Shown piece after piece: positions 4,997 through 49,995 of a stretch of 56,139 bases of DNA. The DNA comes from a virus: IMG/VR virus record IMGVR_UViG_3300045988_062174; one strand, given 5' to 3'. The notes under the pieces were generated by a model. That model had not been told where the DNA came from. It worked only from the letters and a program-made list of their open reading frames with translations, and ran no database searches. The first letter of the stretch is position 1, and the number at the start of each line of letters is the position of its first letter. A program made the position numbers and the translations under genes.

Positions 4997-6235
4997 GTGC
5001 TGACACCAGAATATTTGAATAGCTTTTCTTCCGGCTATCTGGGAATGTGCGATGTGCTGAATGAGCAGATCATCCGAGATGTGGCACGAAGGATAGCGAA
5101 GACCGGAAGAATTACACCGACAGCCGAGTGGCAGTTGAAGCAGGCAAAGCAGTCCGGAGCATTGATGAATGATGTAATCCGGGAGGTCGGGGTTCTGACT
5201 GGAAAATCCGATACGGAGATATTACGCTTATTCCAGGATGCAGGCTTGACCGGGATGTTGCAGGATGCAAAGCCGCTATTGCAGGCCGGAAAGCTGAAAA
5301 CCTCGGATATTGTTCTTTCTGGAGCGATGCAGAGGACCATGGAGGCAGCCGCAGAGAAGTGCAGGGGAGAGATTGGAAACCTTACGCTGACAACGGCGAT
5401 AGCCACACAGCAGGAGTATATGCAGGCACTGAACGCAGCCTATATGAAGGTTACGTCTGGTGCTTTTTCATACCAGGAGGCAATCAGACAGGCTATCCGG
5501 GATGCGGCAGTCAAAGGAACATCGGTCATGTATGACAGTGGGTATATCTCAAAGCTGGATACGGCAATCAGAACTGCTCTGCTAACCGGAGTAAATCAGA
5601 CAGCAGGAAAGCTGACGGAGTTGTATGCTTCGGAGCTTGGAGCTGAGTATTACGAGACAACAGCTCATGCAGGAGCCAGACCCTCACACTCAGTCTGGCA
5701 GGGCAAGGTGTTCAAGATTGAGGGCACAGCTCCGGGGTATGAGAACTTCTACGAGGCAACCGGATATGGAACAGGAGCCGGTTTGTGCGGTTGGAATTGC
5801 AGGCATAGCTTCTATCCGTACTGGCCGGGAGTTTCAAAACCGGCATACACGAAAGATGATCTTGAGGATTACAGCAGACCGAAGTATTCGTTTGCAGGGA
5901 ACCTTCTTACGGAGTATGAGTGTATGCAGAAACAACGGGAGTATGAAAGGGCAGTTAGGGAGTACAAGAGAATCCTGGCCGCCTATGATTCGTATATCCA
6001 GACGGTCCAGTCAGAAACAGACAGAGCGTACTTCCGGGAGGAGTTCCAGAAAGAATCTGTGAAGCTGAAAGAGAAGGAATCGCAGATGAAAGATTTCTGC
6101 AAGCAGACTGGACGGAGCATAGATACTGCCAGAACGCAGGTATCAGCCGTATATGACGGCAACGGTAACTTGGCATCATTTAACCACTCAGTCAGTGGAA
6201 AAGCTGTATGGGCGAATAAGAAAGCGAGGAAATAA
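4997..6235 (+). CDS. Minor head / head-morphogenesis protein (Mu F / SPP1 gp7 family)
   Basis: Motif GWNCRHSFYPYWPG is characteristic of the Phage_Mu_F domain. It follows the portal gene. Confidence 0.8.
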   Translation: MLTPEYLNSFSSGYLGMCDVLNEQIIRDVARRIAKTGRITPTAEWQLKQAKQSGALMNDVIREVGVLTGKSDTEILRLFQDAGLTGMLQDAKPLLQAGKLKTSDIVLSGAMQRTMEAAAEKCRGEIGNLTLTTAIATQQEYMQALNAAYMKVTSGAFSYQEAIRQAIRDAAVKGTSVMYDSGYISKLDTAIRTALLTGVNQTAGKLTELYASELGAEYYETTAHAGARPSHSVWQGKVFKIEGTAPGYENFYEATGYGTGAGLCGWNCRHSFYPYWPGVSKPAYTKDDLEDYSRPKYSFAGNLLTEYECMQKQREYERAVREYKRILAAYDSYIQTVQSETDRAYFREEFQKESVKLKEKESQMKDFCKQTGRSIDTARTQVSAVYDGNGNLASFNHSVSGKAVWANKKARK

Positions 6236-21008: not shown

Positions 21009-23327
21009 ATGGCAGATATTTCCCAGGAAATAGATCAGCTTAGAAATGCGGTCTATGGAGAAGAGGTGCGAGGAGCTTTTATCTCCTGCATGCAGAAGAT
21101 TCACGAGGAAAATGAAAGCTACAACAGTATCAAAGAGTCAGTCAATCAGTCGGCGGCTACCATGCAGGAGCAGGTAGAATCTATCAACACGAAGTCTGAG
21201 GAAGTCAAAGCTGCATTGCAGAATCTGACTATGGCAATCGCCAATGGTAAAAATCAGCAGGATGCAATCGAGAAAGCTACCGCAGCCGGAAAGACACAGC
21301 AGACTGCTACAGAAAAGGCTACGTCTGAGAGTAAGACACAGCAGGATGCAATCGAGAAAGCTACAGAGGCCAGTAAAACACAGCAGACAGCTTTACAGAA
21401 AGTCGTTGATTCTGCAAAACAGATTGACTCAGCGATCCAGCAATCTGTAACGGCAGCGAATACAGCAGCCAACAATGCATCGGCAGCTACGAAATCTGCA
21501 ACAGAAGCAACGTCTTTAGCAAATCAGTCGGCAGAAGCGGCTAAGACTGCGACAACAAATGCAAATGATGCTACAGAGAAAACAAATGCGGCGGTAAAAA
21601 ATGCATCAGATGCTACAGAACAGGCTGCGCAGGCGACATCAGCAGCAAATGCGGCGACTGAAAATGCAAATCAGGCAACAGTAGCCGCCAAAGCAGCAAC
21701 GAAGGAAGCACTGACGCAGGCGGAAGAGGCGAAACAGGCGGCGGCATCCGTAAGGGACGATTGCTATCCGATGATGTTCCGCAATTACGATGGCAGAACA
21801 TATTCTGTGTTTTTTGAGGATGCAGATGAAACAATGGTCTGCACTGGCACGAAAGAAGACGACAACGCAGATGTCGCAACACCGGTTCCGTCCACAAACG
21901 CAGTGAGGAATGAGAACCCCTATGATGAAATTCCACTGTTTAAGCCGGTTGAGTGTAACGGTTATGCAGATGAAGATGGAGAGCTTCATATTACGGCAGT
22001 CAAAGGAGAACCAGAGTTCCGGACGGACGGAACAAAAGGAGATGTATGTATCGCCCTCAAAACAGGATACATTCGGACAATTATCGATACGGTTGGAATT
22101 ATGGGACCACTTGGAAAGAAAGGTACAAAAATTTCGGTTACGGATTCATGGAGAGAATCTGAGTATCCGGGATTTCCTTTCATCCCGTACACAGCAGCGA
22201 TTAGACCAGATGGATCGGTAAGACCATATGTGTTGATCCCGAAGCACCAGGCTGTCAATTTTAACAGTTCGTATTATTCGCTTCCTGGATTCGCCCCGGC
22301 ATACAATGTGTCACATAATGGACAGATTACAACCTTCCGGAAGCGTGGCGACCAGTATTGCGGAGAGACTTGCTCAGATGCAGAAATCTGGGAAACACTG
22401 TTCATGATCGTATTTGCAAATATGAACTCGCAGGCTGTCATGGTAGGATGTACAGGATTTGCCGACCAGTATATGGCGGCAGTTGCAGAAGAAAATGTTG
22501 AAAGAATCATTTTGACCAAAAAGCAGGCAGAATACTTTCCAATCGGATGCTGCGTATCTATTGGGGAGATGGGAAGCAGTACGAATAAAGACCGAGGTCA
22601 GTCTTATATGCACAACCTCGCAAATCGTGTCAAAGTAACGAAGATTGAGGCATTGGATGATGATTCTGGAAATTACGCATTATATGTTGATAATGGAGGA
22701 GTGACGTTTAACACATCTACAACTACATGTATTTCGACTATGCCGTGGCATACCGGTTCGACGGATAAGGTTAAGGGAACGTGCGGATCTCCATACAGCA
22801 ATACGAATGGAAAAGAACCATTCAAGTTCCTTGGTATCGAGTTTGCACTTGGACAGTATGTGGTTCGTTCTGATGTGATCTTGAACGGTGTGTACGATGC
22901 AGATGCCGACATCTACCAGCAGGAAATTTATACATGTTACGATTGCAAGTATTTTGCTACTGCAATCAATGAACATTACAAAAAGCTTGGTTATGTGATT
23001 CCGGATTCCGGAAATGCATGGAAGTATATCAAAAATCTTGGGTTTGATGTCAATTTCCCTCACATCAGAATGGCTTCAGAATATGGTGGAGACAGTAACA
23101 AGCGATTTGGGGACGCAGTACATACAGGAACTCGTGCCAACGGCACAAGGGGGTTCCTGTCGCTCGGCTACCTGGGGGTCTGGTCGGTTGCCGGGTTGCG
23201 GTTTGCCTTTCTGGACCTTTGGCTCGGTAGCGGCGGCTGGGGCTTCTCGGCTCGTCCTTCCCTCACTGGAAGACGAGGATCAGTCGTAGACTGGGCATCG
23301 TCTATGGGGGTGAATTTGGCGGCGTAG
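21009..23327 (+). CDS. Tail fibre / receptor-binding protein; DGR target protein with a C-terminal variable region
   Basis: 772 aa. The N-terminus LRNAVYGEEVRGAF is fibre-like, followed by Ala/Thr/Gln-rich coiled-coil repeats. The last roughly 60 aa (GFLSLGYLGVWSVAGLRFAFLDLWLGSGGWGFSARP) are encoded by the VR. Confidence 0.85.
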   Translation: MADISQEIDQLRNAVYGEEVRGAFISCMQKIHEENESYNSIKESVNQSAATMQEQVESINTKSEEVKAALQNLTMAIANGKNQQDAIEKATAAGKTQQTATEKATSESKTQQDAIEKATEASKTQQTALQKVVDSAKQIDSAIQQSVTAANTAANNASAATKSATEATSLANQSAEAAKTATTNANDATEKTNAAVKNASDATEQAAQATSAANAATENANQATVAAKAATKEALTQAEEAKQAAASVRDDCYPMMFRNYDGRTYSVFFEDADETMVCTGTKEDDNADVATPVPSTNAVRNENPYDEIPLFKPVECNGYADEDGELHITAVKGEPEFRTDGTKGDVCIALKTGYIRTIIDTVGIMGPLGKKGTKISVTDSWRESEYPGFPFIPYTAAIRPDGSVRPYVLIPKHQAVNFNSSYYSLPGFAPAYNVSHNGQITTFRKRGDQYCGETCSDAEIWETLFMIVFANMNSQAVMVGCTGFADQYMAAVAEENVERIILTKKQAEYFPIGCCVSIGEMGSSTNKDRGQSYMHNLANRVKVTKIEALDDDSGNYALYVDNGGVTFNTSTTTCISTMPWHTGSTDKVKGTCGSPYSNTNGKEPFKFLGIEFALGQYVVRSDVILNGVYDADADIYQQEIYTCYDCKYFATAINEHYKKLGYVIPDSGNAWKYIKNLGFDVNFPHIRMASEYGGDSNKRFGDAVHTGTRANGTRGFLSLGYLGVWSVAGLRFAFLDLWLGSGGWGFSARPSLTGRRGSVVDWASSMGVNLAA
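21240..21420 (+). repeat. 84-nt tandem repeat (28 aa, made of 14-aa half repeats KTQQxAxEKATxxx) in the fibre shaft
   Basis: cagcaggatgcaatcgagaaagctac occurs at 21255 and again at 21339. Confidence 0.7.
23149..23257 (+). repeat. DGR variable region (VR)
   Basis: Aligns without gaps to 23401-23509 (offset 252). 88 of 109 positions are identical, and all 21 mismatches lie opposite adenines of the other copy. Confidence 0.92.
23271..23303 (+). other. Two-tier hairpin downstream of VR (candidate DGR target-recognition structure)
   Basis: Outer stem AGACGA/TCGTCT (23271-76 / 23298-303); inner stem CAGTC-gta-GACTG (23281-93). Confidence 0.35.
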
Positions 23328-23334
23328 CCCCAAA

Positions 23335-23360
23335 GAGGGGATCGCCCCTTATAATTTTTT
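23335..23360 (+). terminator. Weak terminator-like hairpin after the fibre gene
   Basis: GAGGGG-atcg-CCCCTT followed by ATAATTTTTT. The stem is short. Confidence 0.3.
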
Positions 23361-23400
23361 GTAACTAATAAATGTATGATATAGGGATTTACGGTATCCG

Positions 23401-23509
23401 GGGAGTTCCTGTCGCTCGGCAACCTGAGGAACAGGTCGAATGCCGGGTTGCGGATTGCCAATCTGAACAATTGGCTCGGTAACGGCAACTGGAACATCTC
23501 GGCTCGTCA
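23401..23509 (+). repeat. DGR template repeat (TR)
   Basis: Non-coding copy of the VR. It contains 24 adenines, 21 of which differ in the VR. In the VR reading frame it holds 9 AAY codons. Confidence 0.92.
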
Positions 23510-23715
23510 CTCTGAATAATTATTCGAGGTATGCCGTACTTCGCCGGACAGCATCTGAAACTGATCCGGCATGCTGAAAAGCATCCTGCACGTGTGCAAA
23601 ATTGTCGAACCAGCACCGGGCAACCGGACTTCGTAACACAGTGGGTACGGAGTGGGCTTAGTAGTAAAACCGAAAGGTCTTGAGATTCAGAAGGAGTATT
23701 CAGAAATTTACATAG
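23510..23715 (+). ncRNA. DGR spacer region between TR and RT (probably part of the TR-containing DGR RNA)
   Basis: 206 nt of non-coding sequence between the TR and the RT start. The role is inferred by analogy to the BPP-1 DGR RNA. Confidence 0.45.
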
Positions 23716-24945
23716 ATGAAGACGTATTGTAAGAATGTAGATATCGAAGATATTTCGATGATGGAGCTGGCGATACGGAATTGCTTTAAGGGAAAGTGGA
23801 AACGCCGGGATATACGGAATCTGCTTTCCCGACATTGCGAGTATACGCCTGGGAAGATTCTAAAGCTCTTGAAAACTGGAAATAAGCATATGCTTGATGG
23901 AGCAGTGCACAATCTGGCACTGGAATTAAATAACAGATTGATGAACAGAGAATTGAGTTTGCCGCCGACTGTATCAAGGACAGTCATTGAAGGGGCAAAG
24001 CAGAAAGAAAGGAACTTAGAGATAGAATCGTATGAGCACCAGATATTTGACCATCTGGCAGACCTTGGGCTGCAGGAACTGTTTGAGAAGAAATTCGGAA
24101 CATGGCAGTGTGCATCCATCAAAGGCAGAGGTCAGCTCTATACGAAGAAAGGAATTGAGAAGTGGATTCGGACAGATCCACAGGGGACGAAAGTGGCGAT
24201 TCAGTGTGATGTCCGGAAATGCTATCAGAATATAGACATTGATGTGCTGATAGCAATGTTGGAAAGGGATATTCACAAGAATAAGCCGTTGTTGTGGTTG
24301 ACAAGAAAACTGTTGCTGATAATGAAAGAGAAAGACAAAGGATTGTTTGTCGGTTCAGTTATCTCGAAAGACCTGGCAAATTATTATATGAGTTATCTGT
24401 ATCATTATGCAGAGAGCAAATTGACCGTTACCAGAAGGTCACGCAGAAATGGTCCGGTCAAGGTCCGATTGTTGAGCCACCAGGCAATGTACATGGATGA
24501 TGTGTTTCTGAGTGGCTCTAATCGGAAATATCTTATGATGGCATTCCGGAAAATACAGCAGTGCCTGGAAGAAAAACTGCATCTGGAATTTAAGGAATCG
24601 TGGAGGTTCTATTATGTCGAATATGAGGACAAGTATGGAGTGAGCCACGGTTGCCCGGCGGATCTGGCAGGATATGTGTACAAGAGAACCTGCACAGTGC
24701 TGAGAGATCATATCTTTTTAAAGGGCAGGAGAGCTTTTAAGAAAGTCAAAACCTACTTGATGAAAGGATATGAGGTAACCCAGAGGATGGCACAGAGAGC
24801 AGTATCTTATTACGGTTGGTTTAAGAACAGCAACCTGCATCAGTTTATGGAGAAATATGGAATTGAAGAATTACAGAAATATTGCAAAAGAAGACTGAGC
24901 TATCTCAGTAAAAGAAACAGAGCAAAGGAGGCATTGGCATGTTGA
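23716..24945 (+). CDS. DGR reverse transcriptase
   Basis: 409 aa. The catalytic YMDD is at codons 24490-24501 (QAMYMDDVFLSG). The fingers/palm pattern is CASIKGRGQ...VAIQCDVRKCYQNID...FVGSVISKDLANYY. It lies immediately downstream of the TR. Confidence 0.9.
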   Translation: MKTYCKNVDIEDISMMELAIRNCFKGKWKRRDIRNLLSRHCEYTPGKILKLLKTGNKHMLDGAVHNLALELNNRLMNRELSLPPTVSRTVIEGAKQKERNLEIESYEHQIFDHLADLGLQELFEKKFGTWQCASIKGRGQLYTKKGIEKWIRTDPQGTKVAIQCDVRKCYQNIDIDVLIAMLERDIHKNKPLLWLTRKLLLIMKEKDKGLFVGSVISKDLANYYMSYLYHYAESKLTVTRRSRRNGPVKVRLLSHQAMYMDDVFLSGSNRKYLMMAFRKIQQCLEEKLHLEFKESWRFYYVEYEDKYGVSHGCPADLAGYVYKRTCTVLRDHIFLKGRRAFKKVKTYLMKGYEVTQRMAQRAVSYYGWFKNSNLHQFMEKYGIEELQKYCKRRLSYLSKRNRAKEALAC

Positions 24946-25637
24946 CAGTAATATGCAGCACAGAACAAATTGAAAGCATGGAATATTACCTGCGAAGCTC
25001 CGGTGTAGCAGACGTATTTTTGCGAAAGAACATTCAGAAGCAGGATGCGGAAGATGTTGGAGAGAACAAGGGAATCCAGTATACAGCAGATGAAGTGTAT
25101 TTTGCAGTGACCGGCGAGAAAGCATCGAAGGAATCTATTGAGGAAGATTTCGACTACTGGTACAGCAAAGGCGAAGGGATTACACAGGGAGAGCTGGCAG
25201 ATAGATACAGTCTGGAGGAACTGCGTATGCAGGCTTACAGCAATGCGAGTGAGGCATGTGAGAAGACAATATATGCCGGGATTGATGTTGAAATCTCAAC
25301 CGGCACAGAGCATTTCAGCTTGACCGAAAAAGACCAGATCAACTTATTCGGAAAGAAAATGCAGCTCTTAGCCGGTATGGAGAAGTTAGAGTATCACGAA
25401 GACGGACAGCCATGTAAATATTTCACTGCGGCAGATATGCAGAATATCGTTGACCGGGCAATGTTTTTCGTGTCCTATAATACGACATACTGTAATGCTA
25501 TGAATATGTGGATCAAGTCGGCAGAGAAAGCAAGTGATCTGGAGCAGATCCAGTGGGGTGCAGAAATTCCGGAAGAGTTCCAGAATGAAGTACTGAAAGA
25601 CTACATGAAGATTCTGGCATCCGGAGGTATCTCGTAA
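24939..25637 (+). CDS. DUF4376-like tail-fibre-associated protein, putative
   Basis: RBS AAGGAGG. It overlaps the RT stop by 7 nt. The C-terminal pattern GIDVEISTGTEHFSLTEKDQINLF...YFTAADMQNIVDRA resembles DUF4376. Confidence 0.45.
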   Translation: MLTVICSTEQIESMEYYLRSSGVADVFLRKNIQKQDAEDVGENKGIQYTADEVYFAVTGEKASKESIEEDFDYWYSKGEGITQGELADRYSLEELRMQAYSNASEACEKTIYAGIDVEISTGTEHFSLTEKDQINLFGKKMQLLAGMEKLEYHEDGQPCKYFTAADMQNIVDRAMFFVSYNTTYCNAMNMWIKSAEKASDLEQIQWGAEIPEEFQNEVLKDYMKILASGGIS

Positions 25638-41091: not shown

Positions 41092-41124
41092 AGCCAGGGG
41101 TGATTAAACCTCTGGCTTTTCTTT
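41092..41124. terminator. Bidirectional terminator hairpin between parB and int
   Basis: AGCCAGGGG-tgattaaa-CCTCTGGCT is flanked by a T-run on the + strand (TTTCTTT) and, on the minus strand, by TTTCTTC. The int stop codon lies in the loop. Confidence 0.6.
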
Positions 41125-42837
41125 GTAGATGAACGTATGAGATAATCCGTTGCGGAATGTAATAGAGTGAACGGCTCCGTCTTTGAAAACGATGTTGTCT
41201 ATGATGCTGCTGAGAAAAGAATCAAGGACCTCTGGAGAAACGGTAGCACTCAGCGATTGAAAGCTGACGTAATTTCGGTCAGTGAGCTTCTGGGAGAGTA
41301 TGAAGTTGCTTGCCTTGGCGATAAATTCATCATCAGTGATAGACTGTTGCAGGCTGTCTTCTGATGCCAGGAACGCCAACTTGTCCTCGACTTCTTCCAG
41401 GGAGTCCGAAAGCTGAATCTTCTGAGTGAGGTATTCGGATTCCGACATGGCTTTTTCGGAATAGAGGAACAGCTTGTTCAGACGGTCAATAGCTCTTTCC
41501 AGACGGACTTTTTCCTTTTTGAGTTTTGATAGCTGCAATGGCGGCTCGGAGCCTGTTTTGATTTTGACGTCTTTTCCGAAGACCTCTCCCTTGATGGTTC
41601 CGGTGCGGAGCGTATGAAACAGATCATGTAATCCGTCCGGGGCAATGGCGGCCACCGGGGAGAAAGTATCGCCGGAGAGTAGCTGCTGTTCCAGTTCCTG
41701 TATGCTCGTTTCCGGAGAGAACGCTTTTTGAGCGTTGAGCATATTGAGAATGTAGTTGAAGACGAACTCGCCAACGATTGGGTCTGAGGTAGATTTTCCG
41801 GTACACCACAGCTTGCTTTTTCTGTGCGTAGGGCAGAAGTAGAGAGAATAGCGTCTGCCAGTAGTCTTCTTTATGGTGGAAATGGAACTGGTCATAGGTT
41901 GACCGCAATTTCCACAGATGAGCAGGCCGGAGAAAATGTGCGTGTATTTGCTCTTGCCACTCTTACGAAATGATTTGAGCCTGCGGTTGGATTCCAGGAG
42001 TGCAAGGATACGTTCTTTCTGTTCTCGGCTTACGATGGCCGGGTGGTGGTCTTTCACGGTAATCCATTCGGATTTATCCTTAGGACGTTGCCGGTCCCCT
42101 TCCTTAAGGCGGTTGTACTGGTAATCGCCGCAGTAGAATACGCTGCGAAGAATAATATCCAGAGAGACAGGAGACCAGTCATTACCGGCACGAGTCCGGT
42201 AGCCATGTTCGTTCAGATACCGGGCCAGGTAAACCAGGGAGCGGAGTTCTTCGTATTTGTCATGAATCAGATGGGCGATGTTGTACTCGTCGGAGTTGAA
42301 GCTGAAAGCCTGTTCCTCCGGGTCATAATCGTAGCCGTAAGGAATACGTCCGCCGTTCCACTGCCCGTTGCTGGCTCTGGAAATCATAGTGGCAGTGACA
42401 CGTTCCGAGGTCATGTTACGCTCCAACTCCGCAAAGACAAGGATAATTTTGAGCATCGCTTCTCCCATAGCCGTACTGGTGTCGAATTGCTCGTTTTTCG
42501 AGACAAAGGTAACGCCCAGGTTTTTAAGCTCCTGGTACATCTCTGCAAAGTCCAGAAGGTTTCTGGAGATGCGGTCAATCTTCCAGACCAGCAGATGCGT
42601 GTACGTGCCGGTCCGAAGCTGAGACATCATTTTCTGAAATTCTGGCCGGATGGTATTTTTGCCAGAGTACCCGGCATCCTCGAAGATTGTCACATCGTCA
42701 GTGTTCAGTATCAGCTTGGCGTAGGCAATCAAATCTTGACGCTGCATAGGCAGAGAGTCCCTGTCGATCTGATGCAGTGTAGAGACTCGTATGTAGATAG
42801 CCACTTTTGCGTGAGTGGCAGCACTGTTTGAAATCAT
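41104..42837 (-). CDS. int: Large serine recombinase (integrase)
   Basis: 577 aa. The N-terminal resolvase motif is KVAIYIRVSTLHQIDRDSLPMQ, followed by a recombinase domain, a zinc ribbon (CGNCGQ...FCPTHRK) and a coiled-coil C-terminus. Confidence 0.92.
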   Translation of the reverse strand: MISNSAATHAKVAIYIRVSTLHQIDRDSLPMQRQDLIAYAKLILNTDDVTIFEDAGYSGKNTIRPEFQKMMSQLRTGTYTHLLVWKIDRISRNLLDFAEMYQELKNLGVTFVSKNEQFDTSTAMGEAMLKIILVFAELERNMTSERVTATMISRASNGQWNGGRIPYGYDYDPEEQAFSFNSDEYNIAHLIHDKYEELRSLVYLARYLNEHGYRTRAGNDWSPVSLDIILRSVFYCGDYQYNRLKEGDRQRPKDKSEWITVKDHHPAIVSREQKERILALLESNRRLKSFRKSGKSKYTHIFSGLLICGNCGQPMTSSISTIKKTTGRRYSLYFCPTHRKSKLWCTGKSTSDPIVGEFVFNYILNMLNAQKAFSPETSIQELEQQLLSGDTFSPVAAIAPDGLHDLFHTLRTGTIKGEVFGKDVKIKTGSEPPLQLSKLKKEKVRLERAIDRLNKLFLYSEKAMSESEYLTQKIQLSDSLEEVEDKLAFLASEDSLQQSITDDEFIAKASNFILSQKLTDRNYVSFQSLSATVSPEVLDSFLSSIIDNIVFKDGAVHSITFRNGLSHTFIYKEKPEV

Positions 42838-49566: not shown

Positions 49567-49995
49567 ATGGAAAAAGTAAAGTTTACGGTATACGGGGAAC
49601 CGAAAGGGAAGGGCAGACCGAGATTCAATACGAAGACCGGTCACGCCATGACCCCGAAAGATACGGTGTCCTATGAAAATCTGGTAAAGCTGGAATGGCA
49701 GACAGCCTACGGGACAGAGAGCTTTCCGAAAGAGGCGATGCTGGATATGAGGATTAAGGCATATTACCGGATTCCTAAGTCGGCATCGAAGAAAAAAAGA
49801 GCGGCGATGCTGGCTGGAGAGATACGTCCGACTAAGAAGCCGGATATGGATAACGTAGTAAAGATTATCGCTGACAGCCTCAACAATCTGGCATATTACG
49901 ATGATACGCAAATTGTTGACTGCCAGTGCCGGAAGTTCTACTCGGAGAATCCGAGAGTAGAAGTGACGATTATAAATTTGTCGAAGGAAGAATAG
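49567..49995 (+). CDS. rusA: RusA-family Holliday junction resolvase
   Basis: FTVYGEPKGKGRPRF...KPDMDNVVKIIADSLN is the RusA pattern. Confidence 0.8.
   Translation: MEKVKFTVYGEPKGKGRPRFNTKTGHAMTPKDTVSYENLVKLEWQTAYGTESFPKEAMLDMRIKAYYRIPKSASKKKRAAMLAGEIRPTKKPDMDNVVKIIADSLNNLAYYDDTQIVDCQCRKFYSENPRVEVTIINLSKEE

Follow-up and report, generated by a model that had tools for sequence, protein, structure and literature searches.

Does the segment at 21009-24945 of the viral record IMGVR_UViG_3300045988_062174 (IMG/VR; 56,139 nt, the whole of which is called the window here) encode a working diversity-generating retroelement (DGR), and if so, what does it diversify? The locus consists of a gene for a tail-fibre-like protein, the DGR target gene (21009-23327, 772 aa, stop codon 23325-23327), which carries a variable repeat (VR) near its 3' end, followed by a non-coding template repeat (TR) and a gene for a reverse transcriptase (RT; 23716-24945, 409 aa); all features of the locus lie on the plus strand. 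We conclude that this is very probably a functional DGR that is active and diversifies the tip of the tail fibre. The conclusion is carried by the adenine-specific repeat pair, the folds of the two proteins, the diversification of the VR next to an invariant TR, and the conservation and covariation of the cis elements.

The two repeats were compared by scripted alignment. Positions 23149-23257 and 23401-23509 aligned without gaps and were identical at 88/109 positions, and all of the mismatches (21/21) were found at adenines of the TR copy, which contains 24 A in its 109 nt. At these 21 sites the VR has 10 G, 9 T and 2 C, and the probability that 21 mismatches would all fall on the 24 A among 109 sites is 1.3e-19. 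The coordinates, the gapless identity and the 21 adenine-only mismatches are the same as those given in an earlier reading of the letters (the original prediction), and no mismatch at a non-adenine position was present in the window. The prediction had counted all 21 differences as mutagenised, and in this respect it has to be amended by one. At the boundary pair formed by A at 23509 in the TR and C at 23257 in the VR, C is found in 15/15 VR copies (described below), which indicates a fixed difference between the TR and VR boundaries and not a mutagenised site. With this correction the VR is 108 nt long (23149-23256, coding for residues 714-750 of the target) with 23 adenine-templated sites, 20 of which are substituted in the window, and the TR extends over 23401-23508 with 23 adenines.

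In the frame of the target the TR contains nine AAY codons, two AGG codons and the codons ATT, ATC and GAG, and its adenines occur solely at codon positions 1 and 2. Fourteen residues are diversified (715, 721, 723, 724, 725, 727, 732, 734, 736, 737, 741, 743, 745 and 746). When the possible substitutions were enumerated no stop codon could be reached and 2.2e13 peptides were obtained (8.9e13 with the boundary codon included), in agreement with the nine AAY codons and the stop-free design proposed originally. The VR ends 23 codons before the target stop codon, and no second, remote VR was found in the window on either strand.

At the 3' boundary of the VR (23245-23262) both repeats contain the same GC-rich 12-mer, TCTCGGCTCGTC, beyond which the VR continues with CTTCCC and the TR with ACTCTG (23509-23514). 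Similar but non-identical VR and TR 3' flanks were also seen in relatives, and the boundary lacks a (G/C)14 element of the kind present in phage BPP-1. By analogy with the initiation of mutagenic homing (IMH) and IMH* sequences of BPP-1 (PMC5758913, PMC3240598), 23245-23262 may act as the IMH counterpart.

If the element is active, the VR should differ between close relatives while the TR stays the same. The exact RT sequence of the window heads a cluster of 939 sequences, and scans of IMG/VR and ENA yielded 18 loci with an RT 98-100% identical, of which 14 hold the TR and 13 of these the VR as well. These 13 loci, one of which (L016) has two VR copies, gave together with the window 15 copies for comparison. 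The TR was identical at 109/109 positions in 14/14 loci holding it, whereas 15/15 VR copies were distinct, with pairwise differences of 9-20. All of the templated adenine sites (23/23) were polymorphic, and among the non-adenine positions only 2/1275 cells differed. The base spectrum at the 23 sites in the 15 copies, as seen after selection, was A 31%, T 30%, G 28% and C 12%. For 12 sequences the nucleotide diversity was 0.143 in the VR, 0.034 in the rest of the target gene and 0.000 in the TR, and the spacer between TR and RT had a diversity of 0.003 compared with about 0.033 in the flanking coding DNA. Over the surrounding 3 kb two of the loci (L001 and L009) share 99.4% identity with the window, and their VRs still differ from that of the window and from each other.

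The same picture was obtained at the protein level. The 90% cluster of the target comprises 4,423 distinct sequences, and the VR peptides of the 15 cluster members listed were all different. Among these listed members 10 templated residues were represented by 4-9 amino acids each; outside the VR one residue reached 4. This pattern of VR variation is as predicted by repeated mutagenic retrohoming, and neither recombination nor ordinary mutation under selection can yield it. The earlier claim that the phage hypermutates its fibre tip is thus borne out to the extent that the VR is extremely heterogeneous across independent assemblies, next to a TR that does not change.

The protein that is diversified is a plausible tail-fibre protein. 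The N-terminus of the target is an Ala/Gln/Thr-rich coiled coil, and the C-terminal ~520 aa form a globular part bearing the VR. No family was found for the target in a Pfam scan, and it matches PHROG 17147 (unknown function) at 7e-119. Its gene directly follows that of a 1077-aa Prophage_tail protein, and downstream of the locus a DUF4376/tail-fibre-like gene, holin-like genes and an endolysin gene follow in this order; the RT gene thus has the fibre gene on one side and the lysis genes on the other. It is reasonable to regard the target as a tail-fibre or receptor-binding protein. An AlphaFold 2 (AF2) model of residues 250-772 (pLDDT 89.4, pTM 0.87) had as its sole significant matches in the PDB the chains of TaqVP (5vf4; E 4.8e-7, probability 1.0), the variable protein of a Thermus aquaticus DGR, to which a C-type-lectin fold is ascribed in the literature. 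The match is at the level of the fold only (13% identity, global TM 0.37-0.49), and a sequence-profile search of the PDB revealed no relationship to TaqVP, only low-complexity noise from the coiled coil. In BFVD the model matched, among others, many proteins annotated as "tail collar fiber", proteins from CrAss-like viruses and from uncultured cr-series gut phages, and one FGE-sulfatase-like and one TvpA-like protein. The comparison of the tip with C-type-lectin-fold DGR targets that the original prediction proposed thus gave a solved DGR variable protein as the best match to the modelled C-terminal half, and the tip carrying the VR is predicted, at the fold level, to be C-type-lectin-like.

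The coiled-coil region (21009-21760) was seen to contain a 42-nt tandem repeat present in 3.1 copies (21255-21386). Among relatives whose residues 250-772 are 93-98% identical, the target was 723, 772, 821, 870 or 911 aa long, the first four lengths (723-870 aa) increasing in steps of 49 aa. The length steps and the tandem repeat suggest that the length of the fibre varies by gain and loss of repeats and its tip by the DGR.

The RT open reading frame (ORF) starts 206 nt after position 23509 and contains YMDD at 24490-24501, so that position, motif and distance were reproduced as first described. In all relatives the ORF is intact with YMDD. The RT matches PHROG 1423 ("reverse transcriptase") at 5e-56, and its sole significant phmmer match in the PDB was the DGR RT of BPP-1 (bRT, 8ub7). 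PADLOC gave weak partial matches only (generic RT 1.9e-14, UG33 6e-8 and DRT-type models 6e-8 to 1e-3). An AlphaFold model made with 37 relatives in the alignment (pLDDT 93.7, pTM 0.88) had 8ub7 as the top Foldseek match in the PDB (E 1.3e-15, TM 0.82 over the length of bRT, rmsd 3.4), and the next structural matches were RTs of G2L4, group II introns, DRT9, DRT2 and retrons at TM ~0.45-0.6. On the basis of the modelled fold, the sequence match and the linkage to the repeat pair, the RT is classified as of the DGR type. Grouping with group II intron, retron or Abi RTs, which had been raised as a possible outcome speaking against a DGR, was not observed by fold, by PDB sequence match or by linkage to the TR and VR.

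An RT carrying a fused Avd-like domain was also considered and ruled out, as the alignment to bRT left few extra residues (~27 at the N-terminus, ~26 at the C-terminus and one insertion of ~20) and bRT was covered at TM 0.82. The start codon of the RT was confirmed by the conserved N-terminus MKTYCKN. The nearest GGAG lies 19 nt before this start (23690-23718), which is unusually far for a ribosome-binding site, and translation of the RT may be weak or dependent on the RNA structure of the spacer.

The association between the RT and the repeats extends well beyond the closest relatives. Loci with RTs 31-82% identical were found in human-gut and other metagenome contigs and in one Blautia metagenome-assembled genome (MAG), and 66/74 of these had their own adenine-specific TR/VR pair in the same target-VR-TR-RT order with similar spacing. 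In this clade the upstream gene ends in a VR of 100-113 nt, 100-250 nt separate this from the TR, and another 150-290 nt separate the TR from the RT. The gene contexts include both siphovirus-like and contractile-tail (baseplate J) types.

Conserved elements were found on both sides of the TR and after the VR. The VR-adjacent element (23307-23350) consists of GGGGTGAA (23307-23314), a hairpin P1 (23315-23334), a hairpin P2 (23335-23350) and a T-run. P2 is a GC hairpin with a 6-bp stem and a 4-nt loop (GAGGGG-ATCG-CCCCTT). Common to all sub-families after the VR are GGGGTGAA, a hairpin whose sequence varies, and GAGGGG-(3-8 nt)-CCCC, and this includes relatives with an RT identity of 31-39%. 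The element occurs once in the window (0 expected by chance), and nothing of this type is found 3' of the TR. The last codons of the target (…GVN…) lie within it in the window, where it also overlaps the stop codon, and in some relatives; in L024 and L025 it is located beyond the stop codon and is conserved although non-coding. For P1 a test anchored on the two invariant boxes was applied to the five closing pairs in 14 distinct sequences. Pairing was found in 92.9% of the cells compared with 55% after shuffling and at most 50% with a slid partner, four pairs showed compensatory changes, and the covariation score was 0.89 compared with 0.18, with 0/500 shuffles as high. For the element as a whole RNAalifold favoured pairing of the upstream GGGG with the downstream CCCC, and because both G-runs are invariant the choice between this pairing and the local P2 is not settled by covariation. 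A single-sequence DNA fold calculated for the 3' flank of the VR did not reach significance (z = -1.45). P2 with its T-run scored terminator-like in the window, and several relatives have no T-run after P2. The best reading is that this element would be the counterpart of the hairpin/cruciform that marks the recipient repeat in BPP-1, possibly doubling as the terminator of the fibre gene.

The TR is flanked by two complementary arms, TTACGGTATCC at 23389-23399 and GGTATGCCGTA at 23528-23538, the latter ~20 nt beyond the TR, which could pair to form a clamp. Such a helix, of 8-16 bp, was found in 23/23 diverged relatives tested, and the sequences of the arms differ between relatives while complementarity is kept over 7-16 bp. 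The longest stem had a mean length of 10.5 bp for cognate arms compared with 7.9 bp for non-cognate arms (Mann-Whitney p = 1e-7). The duplex energy compared with mononucleotide shuffles was uninformative (mean z -1.0). A similar duplex, the avd:Sp "cPRT Stop", has been seen by cryo-electron microscopy of the BPP-1 ribonucleoprotein and was predicted in 207/278 Avd-containing DGRs (bioRxiv 10.1101/2023.10.23.563531). By analogy the TR clamp would correspond to this duplex, here in a clade lacking Avd.

The spacer between TR and RT (23509-23715, 207 nt) is taken as the 3' part of the DGR RNA. Local hairpins are predicted in it, for example at 23543-23570, 23571-23584, 23616-23627 and 23629-23652; the minimum free energy fold of the TR-spacer RNA was made without a shuffle control and is not relied upon. 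The only helix in the RNAalifold consensus of the TR-plus-spacer alignment (489 columns) was a stem-loop at 23654-23680, with a 5-bp covarying stem (GGGCT/GGTCT, 23654-23658 and 23676-23680) and a 17-nt loop, TAGTAGTAAAACCGAAA (23659-23675). Compensatory changes were seen at 3/5 pairs of this stem in 22 relatives, and the loop is nearly invariant in the clade (UAGUAGNAAAACCGAAA), the motif being unique in the window. That a single helix was recovered is explained by the misalignment of variable hairpins by MAFFT, and it was for this reason that the TR clamp was tested by comparing cognate with non-cognate arms. As a guess, the 17-nt loop could be bound by the RT or position the priming site.

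Two further observations concern the DNA around these elements. Among 12 near-identical phages a block of low nucleotide diversity (0-0.005, compared with about 0.033 in the coding DNA to its left and right) starts at 23257 just 3' of the VR, takes in the TR and the spacer and ends ~190 nt inside the RT ORF (about 23900); this block might be either a functional RNA or DNA element reaching into the RT ORF or the result of recent spread by recombination. Between the VR-adjacent hairpin and the TR clamp an AT-rich stretch (23359-23385) holds GTAACTAATAA, which is also found in L037 and L038 (RT 38% identical) and was not flagged by a consensus promoter scan; the stretch may be the promoter of the TR RNA.

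Several observations weigh against an active DGR. The diversification of the VR was seen between assemblies and not inside one population. Support for the RT from family libraries is weak, with only 32 bits for Pfam RVT_1 and, as the best NCBIfam model, the group II intron RT TIGR04416 at 57.9 bits compared with a cut-off of 300, and no DGR-specific RT model was returned by the Pfam and NCBIfam scans of the RT. The RT reads VGSVISK (24349-24369, residues 212-218) where the signature [LIV]GxxxSQ is expected (IGSLTSQ in bRT). Thirty neighbouring or small ORFs were scanned directly with Pfam, the basic ones at E up to 1, and no Avd was detected. Finally, P2 lies 79 nt from the end of the VR with an ATCG loop, unlike the hairpins of Guo et al., who described a GC-rich hairpin/cruciform downstream of the VR with a 7-10 bp stem and a GRNA 4-nt loop at 4-34 bp from the VR (PMC3240598), and P2 may be only a terminator.

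Concerning the signature motif, SQ is in the majority in the RT clade, the window RT and its closest relatives have SK, and a second subgroup also has SK. RTs of the SK type adjoin adenine-specific TR/VR pairs both in the window and in L025 (RT P0086), which shows that Q is not needed for adenine specificity in this clade.

Avd is found in 74% of DGRs and is not universal. In the window the gaps between target and TR (144 nt) and between TR and RT (207 nt) are too short for a gene of ~120 aa in the usual positions of Avd, and none of the genes called near the RTs of relatives belongs to an Avd-type family. When 84 ORFs of the window were scanned with Pfam and NCBIfam no Avd was present among the 25 best families listed, a result that excludes only strong matches. 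Wu et al. found that 75/372 DGRs had no accessory gene ("Architecture A", a TR-RT core) and that one RT lineage was wholly avd-less (PMC5758913). The locus fits an Avd-independent DGR of "Architecture A", and given that avd-less DGRs have already been described, the missing Avd lowers the resemblance to BPP-1 and not the assignment as a DGR. The BPP-1 paradigm invoked in the original prediction therefore holds for the identity of the element, and it does not hold in the sense of a close copy of that cassette, as there is no Avd and SK replaces SQ.

It is conceivable, though we consider it rather unlikely, that this real DGR depends on an accessory factor which has gone unrecognised, such as a divergent Avd-like protein, the product of the 232-aa gene downstream of the RT or a host protein. 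Avd proteins are "very poorly conserved" and can be missed by profile searches (Wu et al., PMC5758913), the scans of the whole window listed no more than the 25 best families, and a gene of 113-232 aa, either the DUF4376 gene or one of similar size, always follows 3' of the RT in relatives. However, none of the neighbours and none of the basic small ORFs scanned individually at E up to 1 gave a match of the PF05635 or TIGR02436 type, the 121-aa protein encoded upstream is acidic (pI 4.4), and the downstream gene is DUF4376/tail-fibre-like. In addition, Wu et al. found no trans-encoded avd for cassettes lacking one and described a whole lineage without it (PMC5758913). An accessory factor of this kind would alter the mechanism and not the identity of the locus as a DGR.

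A fossil DGR, in which the cassette is now inactive and the VR differences are old and were inherited by lineages that have since diverged, would account for the fact that diversification is seen between assemblies rather than within one population, and for an RT that departs from the SQ signature and has no Avd at its side. We regard it as very improbable. L001 and L009 have flanks 99.4% identical to the window, yet many of their VR adenine sites differ, and the 15 DNA copies and 15 further protein variants were all distinct within a target cluster of 4,423 distinct sequences. Moreover, the RT ORF has been kept intact with its YMDD in all relatives, and TR, spacer and the RT 5' end are far more constrained than the flanking genes (0-0.005 compared with 0.033).

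The idea that the RT is a retron, Abi/DRT or group II intron enzyme unrelated to the repeats, with the tip varying by recombination or selected mutation, can point to the weak partial PADLOC matches to DRT-type models (6e-8 to 1e-3) and the sub-threshold group II RT match, but it is effectively refuted by the adenine specificity, which recombination or selection alone could not produce, by the DGR RT as the best structural match, by the joint occurrence of RT and repeat pair in 66/74 relatives, and by an Rfam scan of 22800-25200 at E up to 1 that gave no match and hence no intron or retron RNA family.

With an active DGR as the preferred reading, the following scheme can be proposed. An RNA would be made that spans the non-coding TR (23401-23508) plus its flanks; the flanks would pair (23389-23399 with 23528-23538) and the 207-nt spacer would fold into hairpins, one of them with the invariant 17-nt loop. 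The RT would then copy the TR into complementary DNA (cDNA), faithfully at C, G and U and with misincorporation opposite A, and the cDNA would replace the homologous 108-nt VR (23149-23256) at the 3' end of the fibre gene, with the TR itself left unchanged. In this way 14 residues on the C-type-lectin-like tip could be re-drawn, with about 2e13 peptides possible and no stops, and the host surface structure that is bound would presumably be altered. That only the VR is rewritten would presumably be set by its diverged 3' flank and the hairpin element 50-95 nt past the VR (23307-23350). What we infer in this scheme is where the RNA begins and ends, where priming takes place, what each cis element does and how host range is affected.

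The closest experimentally studied parallel is the BPP-1 DGR (mtd-avd-TR-brt). In both systems the target is a phage tail fibre that has the VR (~110-130 nt) at its C-terminus, a non-coding TR with ~23 template adenines and AAY codons is located 5' of the RT, and the RTs share the same fold (8ub7, TM 0.82). In both, the TR flanks pair, the 3' flanks of VR and TR are similar but non-identical, and inverted repeats follow the VR. Unlike BPP-1, the window has no Avd, its target has no sequence similarity to Mtd, and its RT has 409 aa compared with 328 aa, is ~20% identical and has SK for SQ; the VR-proximal hairpin element is bipartite, lies 50-95 nt from the VR and has a loop other than GRNA. 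A cassette with the same parts in the same order (target, TR and RT only, no accessory gene) is found in the Avd-less Architecture A / Lineage 3 of Wu et al., in whose Avd-less set Firmicutes and the human microbiome are well represented (PMC5758913). Their Lineage 3A, however, occurs only in Bacteroides and its relatives, and the clade of the window in Lachnospiraceae-type phages. TaqVP differs in being a cellular protein, the target of the window being a phage fibre. The nearest annotated RTs are those of Faecalibacterium phage FP_Epona, Butyrivibrio phages Arawn and Idris, Lactobacillus phage LBR48, hankyphage and uncultured cr-series phages. According to the literature, these gut and rumen phages of Firmicutes and Bacteroides, with their tail-fibre-linked RTs and DGRs, share the ecology and the logic of tail-protein diversification (PMC5883640, PMC6199706), but their RTs are at most 31% identical to that of the window and there is no DNA similarity.

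The phage that carries the locus is a temperate, siphovirus-type gut phage with the DGR in its tail module. Its host is probably Blautia, and the nearest genome-resolved relative was found in the Blautia MAG (RT 82% identical, target 88% identical). A DNA search of an annotated phage collection with the 3.9-kb locus gave no match, and the closest RT in that collection was 31% identical. The rest of the window resembles a complete temperate phage of ~55 kb (e.g. 41104-42837 on the minus strand and 49567-49995), encoding a large serine recombinase, Cro/C1-type repressors, RecT, RusA, ParB-like proteins and a replisome organiser, as well as a Lar-like restriction-alleviation protein. One window ORF matched a Thoeris anti-defence Tad2-like domain (PF11195, E 4.5e-21); this ORF was not located among 10 candidates scanned. 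The 232-aa gene (24939-25637) overlaps the stop codon of the RT and matches DUF4376 and PHROG 1348 ("tail fiber protein"), and judged from these family matches its product is probably a fibre-associated or assembly protein, a neighbour rather than a demonstrated part of the DGR.

Two rearranged copies of the repeat region were seen among the related loci. In L016 (IMGVR_UViG_3300045988_002665, 5182-5794) an extra 252-nt unit is present between target and TR, which has a TR-type 5' flank, an adenine-mutated repeat unlike the VR of the same contig, and a VR-type 3' flank. This duplicated unit is the sole hint of diversification within an assembly, and it is either a loop of the assembler through the VR/TR repeat of a population carrying two VR alleles or a genuine product of VR/TR recombination. 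The second case comes from a different phage of the clade. In L026 (5540-5805), compared with L025 (5695-5805), which has the identical RT protein (P0086), the TR is interrupted by 155 inserted nt that include an exact duplication of 55 nt; the TR may be rearranged, or the assembly may have gone wrong at the repeat.

As a kind of element, the DGR described here is a further example of a well-known system that is common in gut phages, although the phage itself is absent from the annotated phage collection. Roux et al. found DGRs to be enriched in the human gut and in Firmicutes, with mostly tail proteins as viral targets (PMC8144416), and in prevalent families of gut Firmicutes phages active DGRs were reported at 15-72% incidence (bioRxiv 10.64898/2026.01.26.701711). 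Metagenome collections like those that contain this phage have already been mined for DGRs, tail-protein DGRs of gut phages have been documented in thousands, and Avd-less cassettes have been recognised since 2018, so that there is little new in kind. What is added is a clean record of natural variants, an RT with SK for SQ and conserved cis elements in an Avd-less clade, in a compact and apparently single-protein cassette with high-confidence models for both proteins.

A broader reading, which we put forward tentatively as possible rather than probable, is that the window typifies a large and uniform clade of Avd-independent DGRs in gut Firmicutes phages, maybe with a variant form of mutagenic retrohoming. 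Under such a variant a cPRT-Stop-like TR clamp would be kept, together with the spacer stem-loop and its invariant loop (UAGUAGNAAAACCGAAA), and the target would be marked by the bipartite GGGGTGAA-P1-GAGGGGnnnnCCCC element 50-95 nt beyond the VR rather than by a GRNA hairpin of the BPP-1 type. If this were true, a cassette of ~1.9 kb (TR, spacer and RT) encoding one protein would be a minimal DGR, with the conserved elements as its recognition code. The locus is a convenient system for studying how Avd-independent DGRs prime, stop and target cDNA synthesis, and possibly a small tool for diversification. For the phages themselves, nearly every assembled copy has a different fibre tip, which makes the prediction of host range from one genome unreliable.

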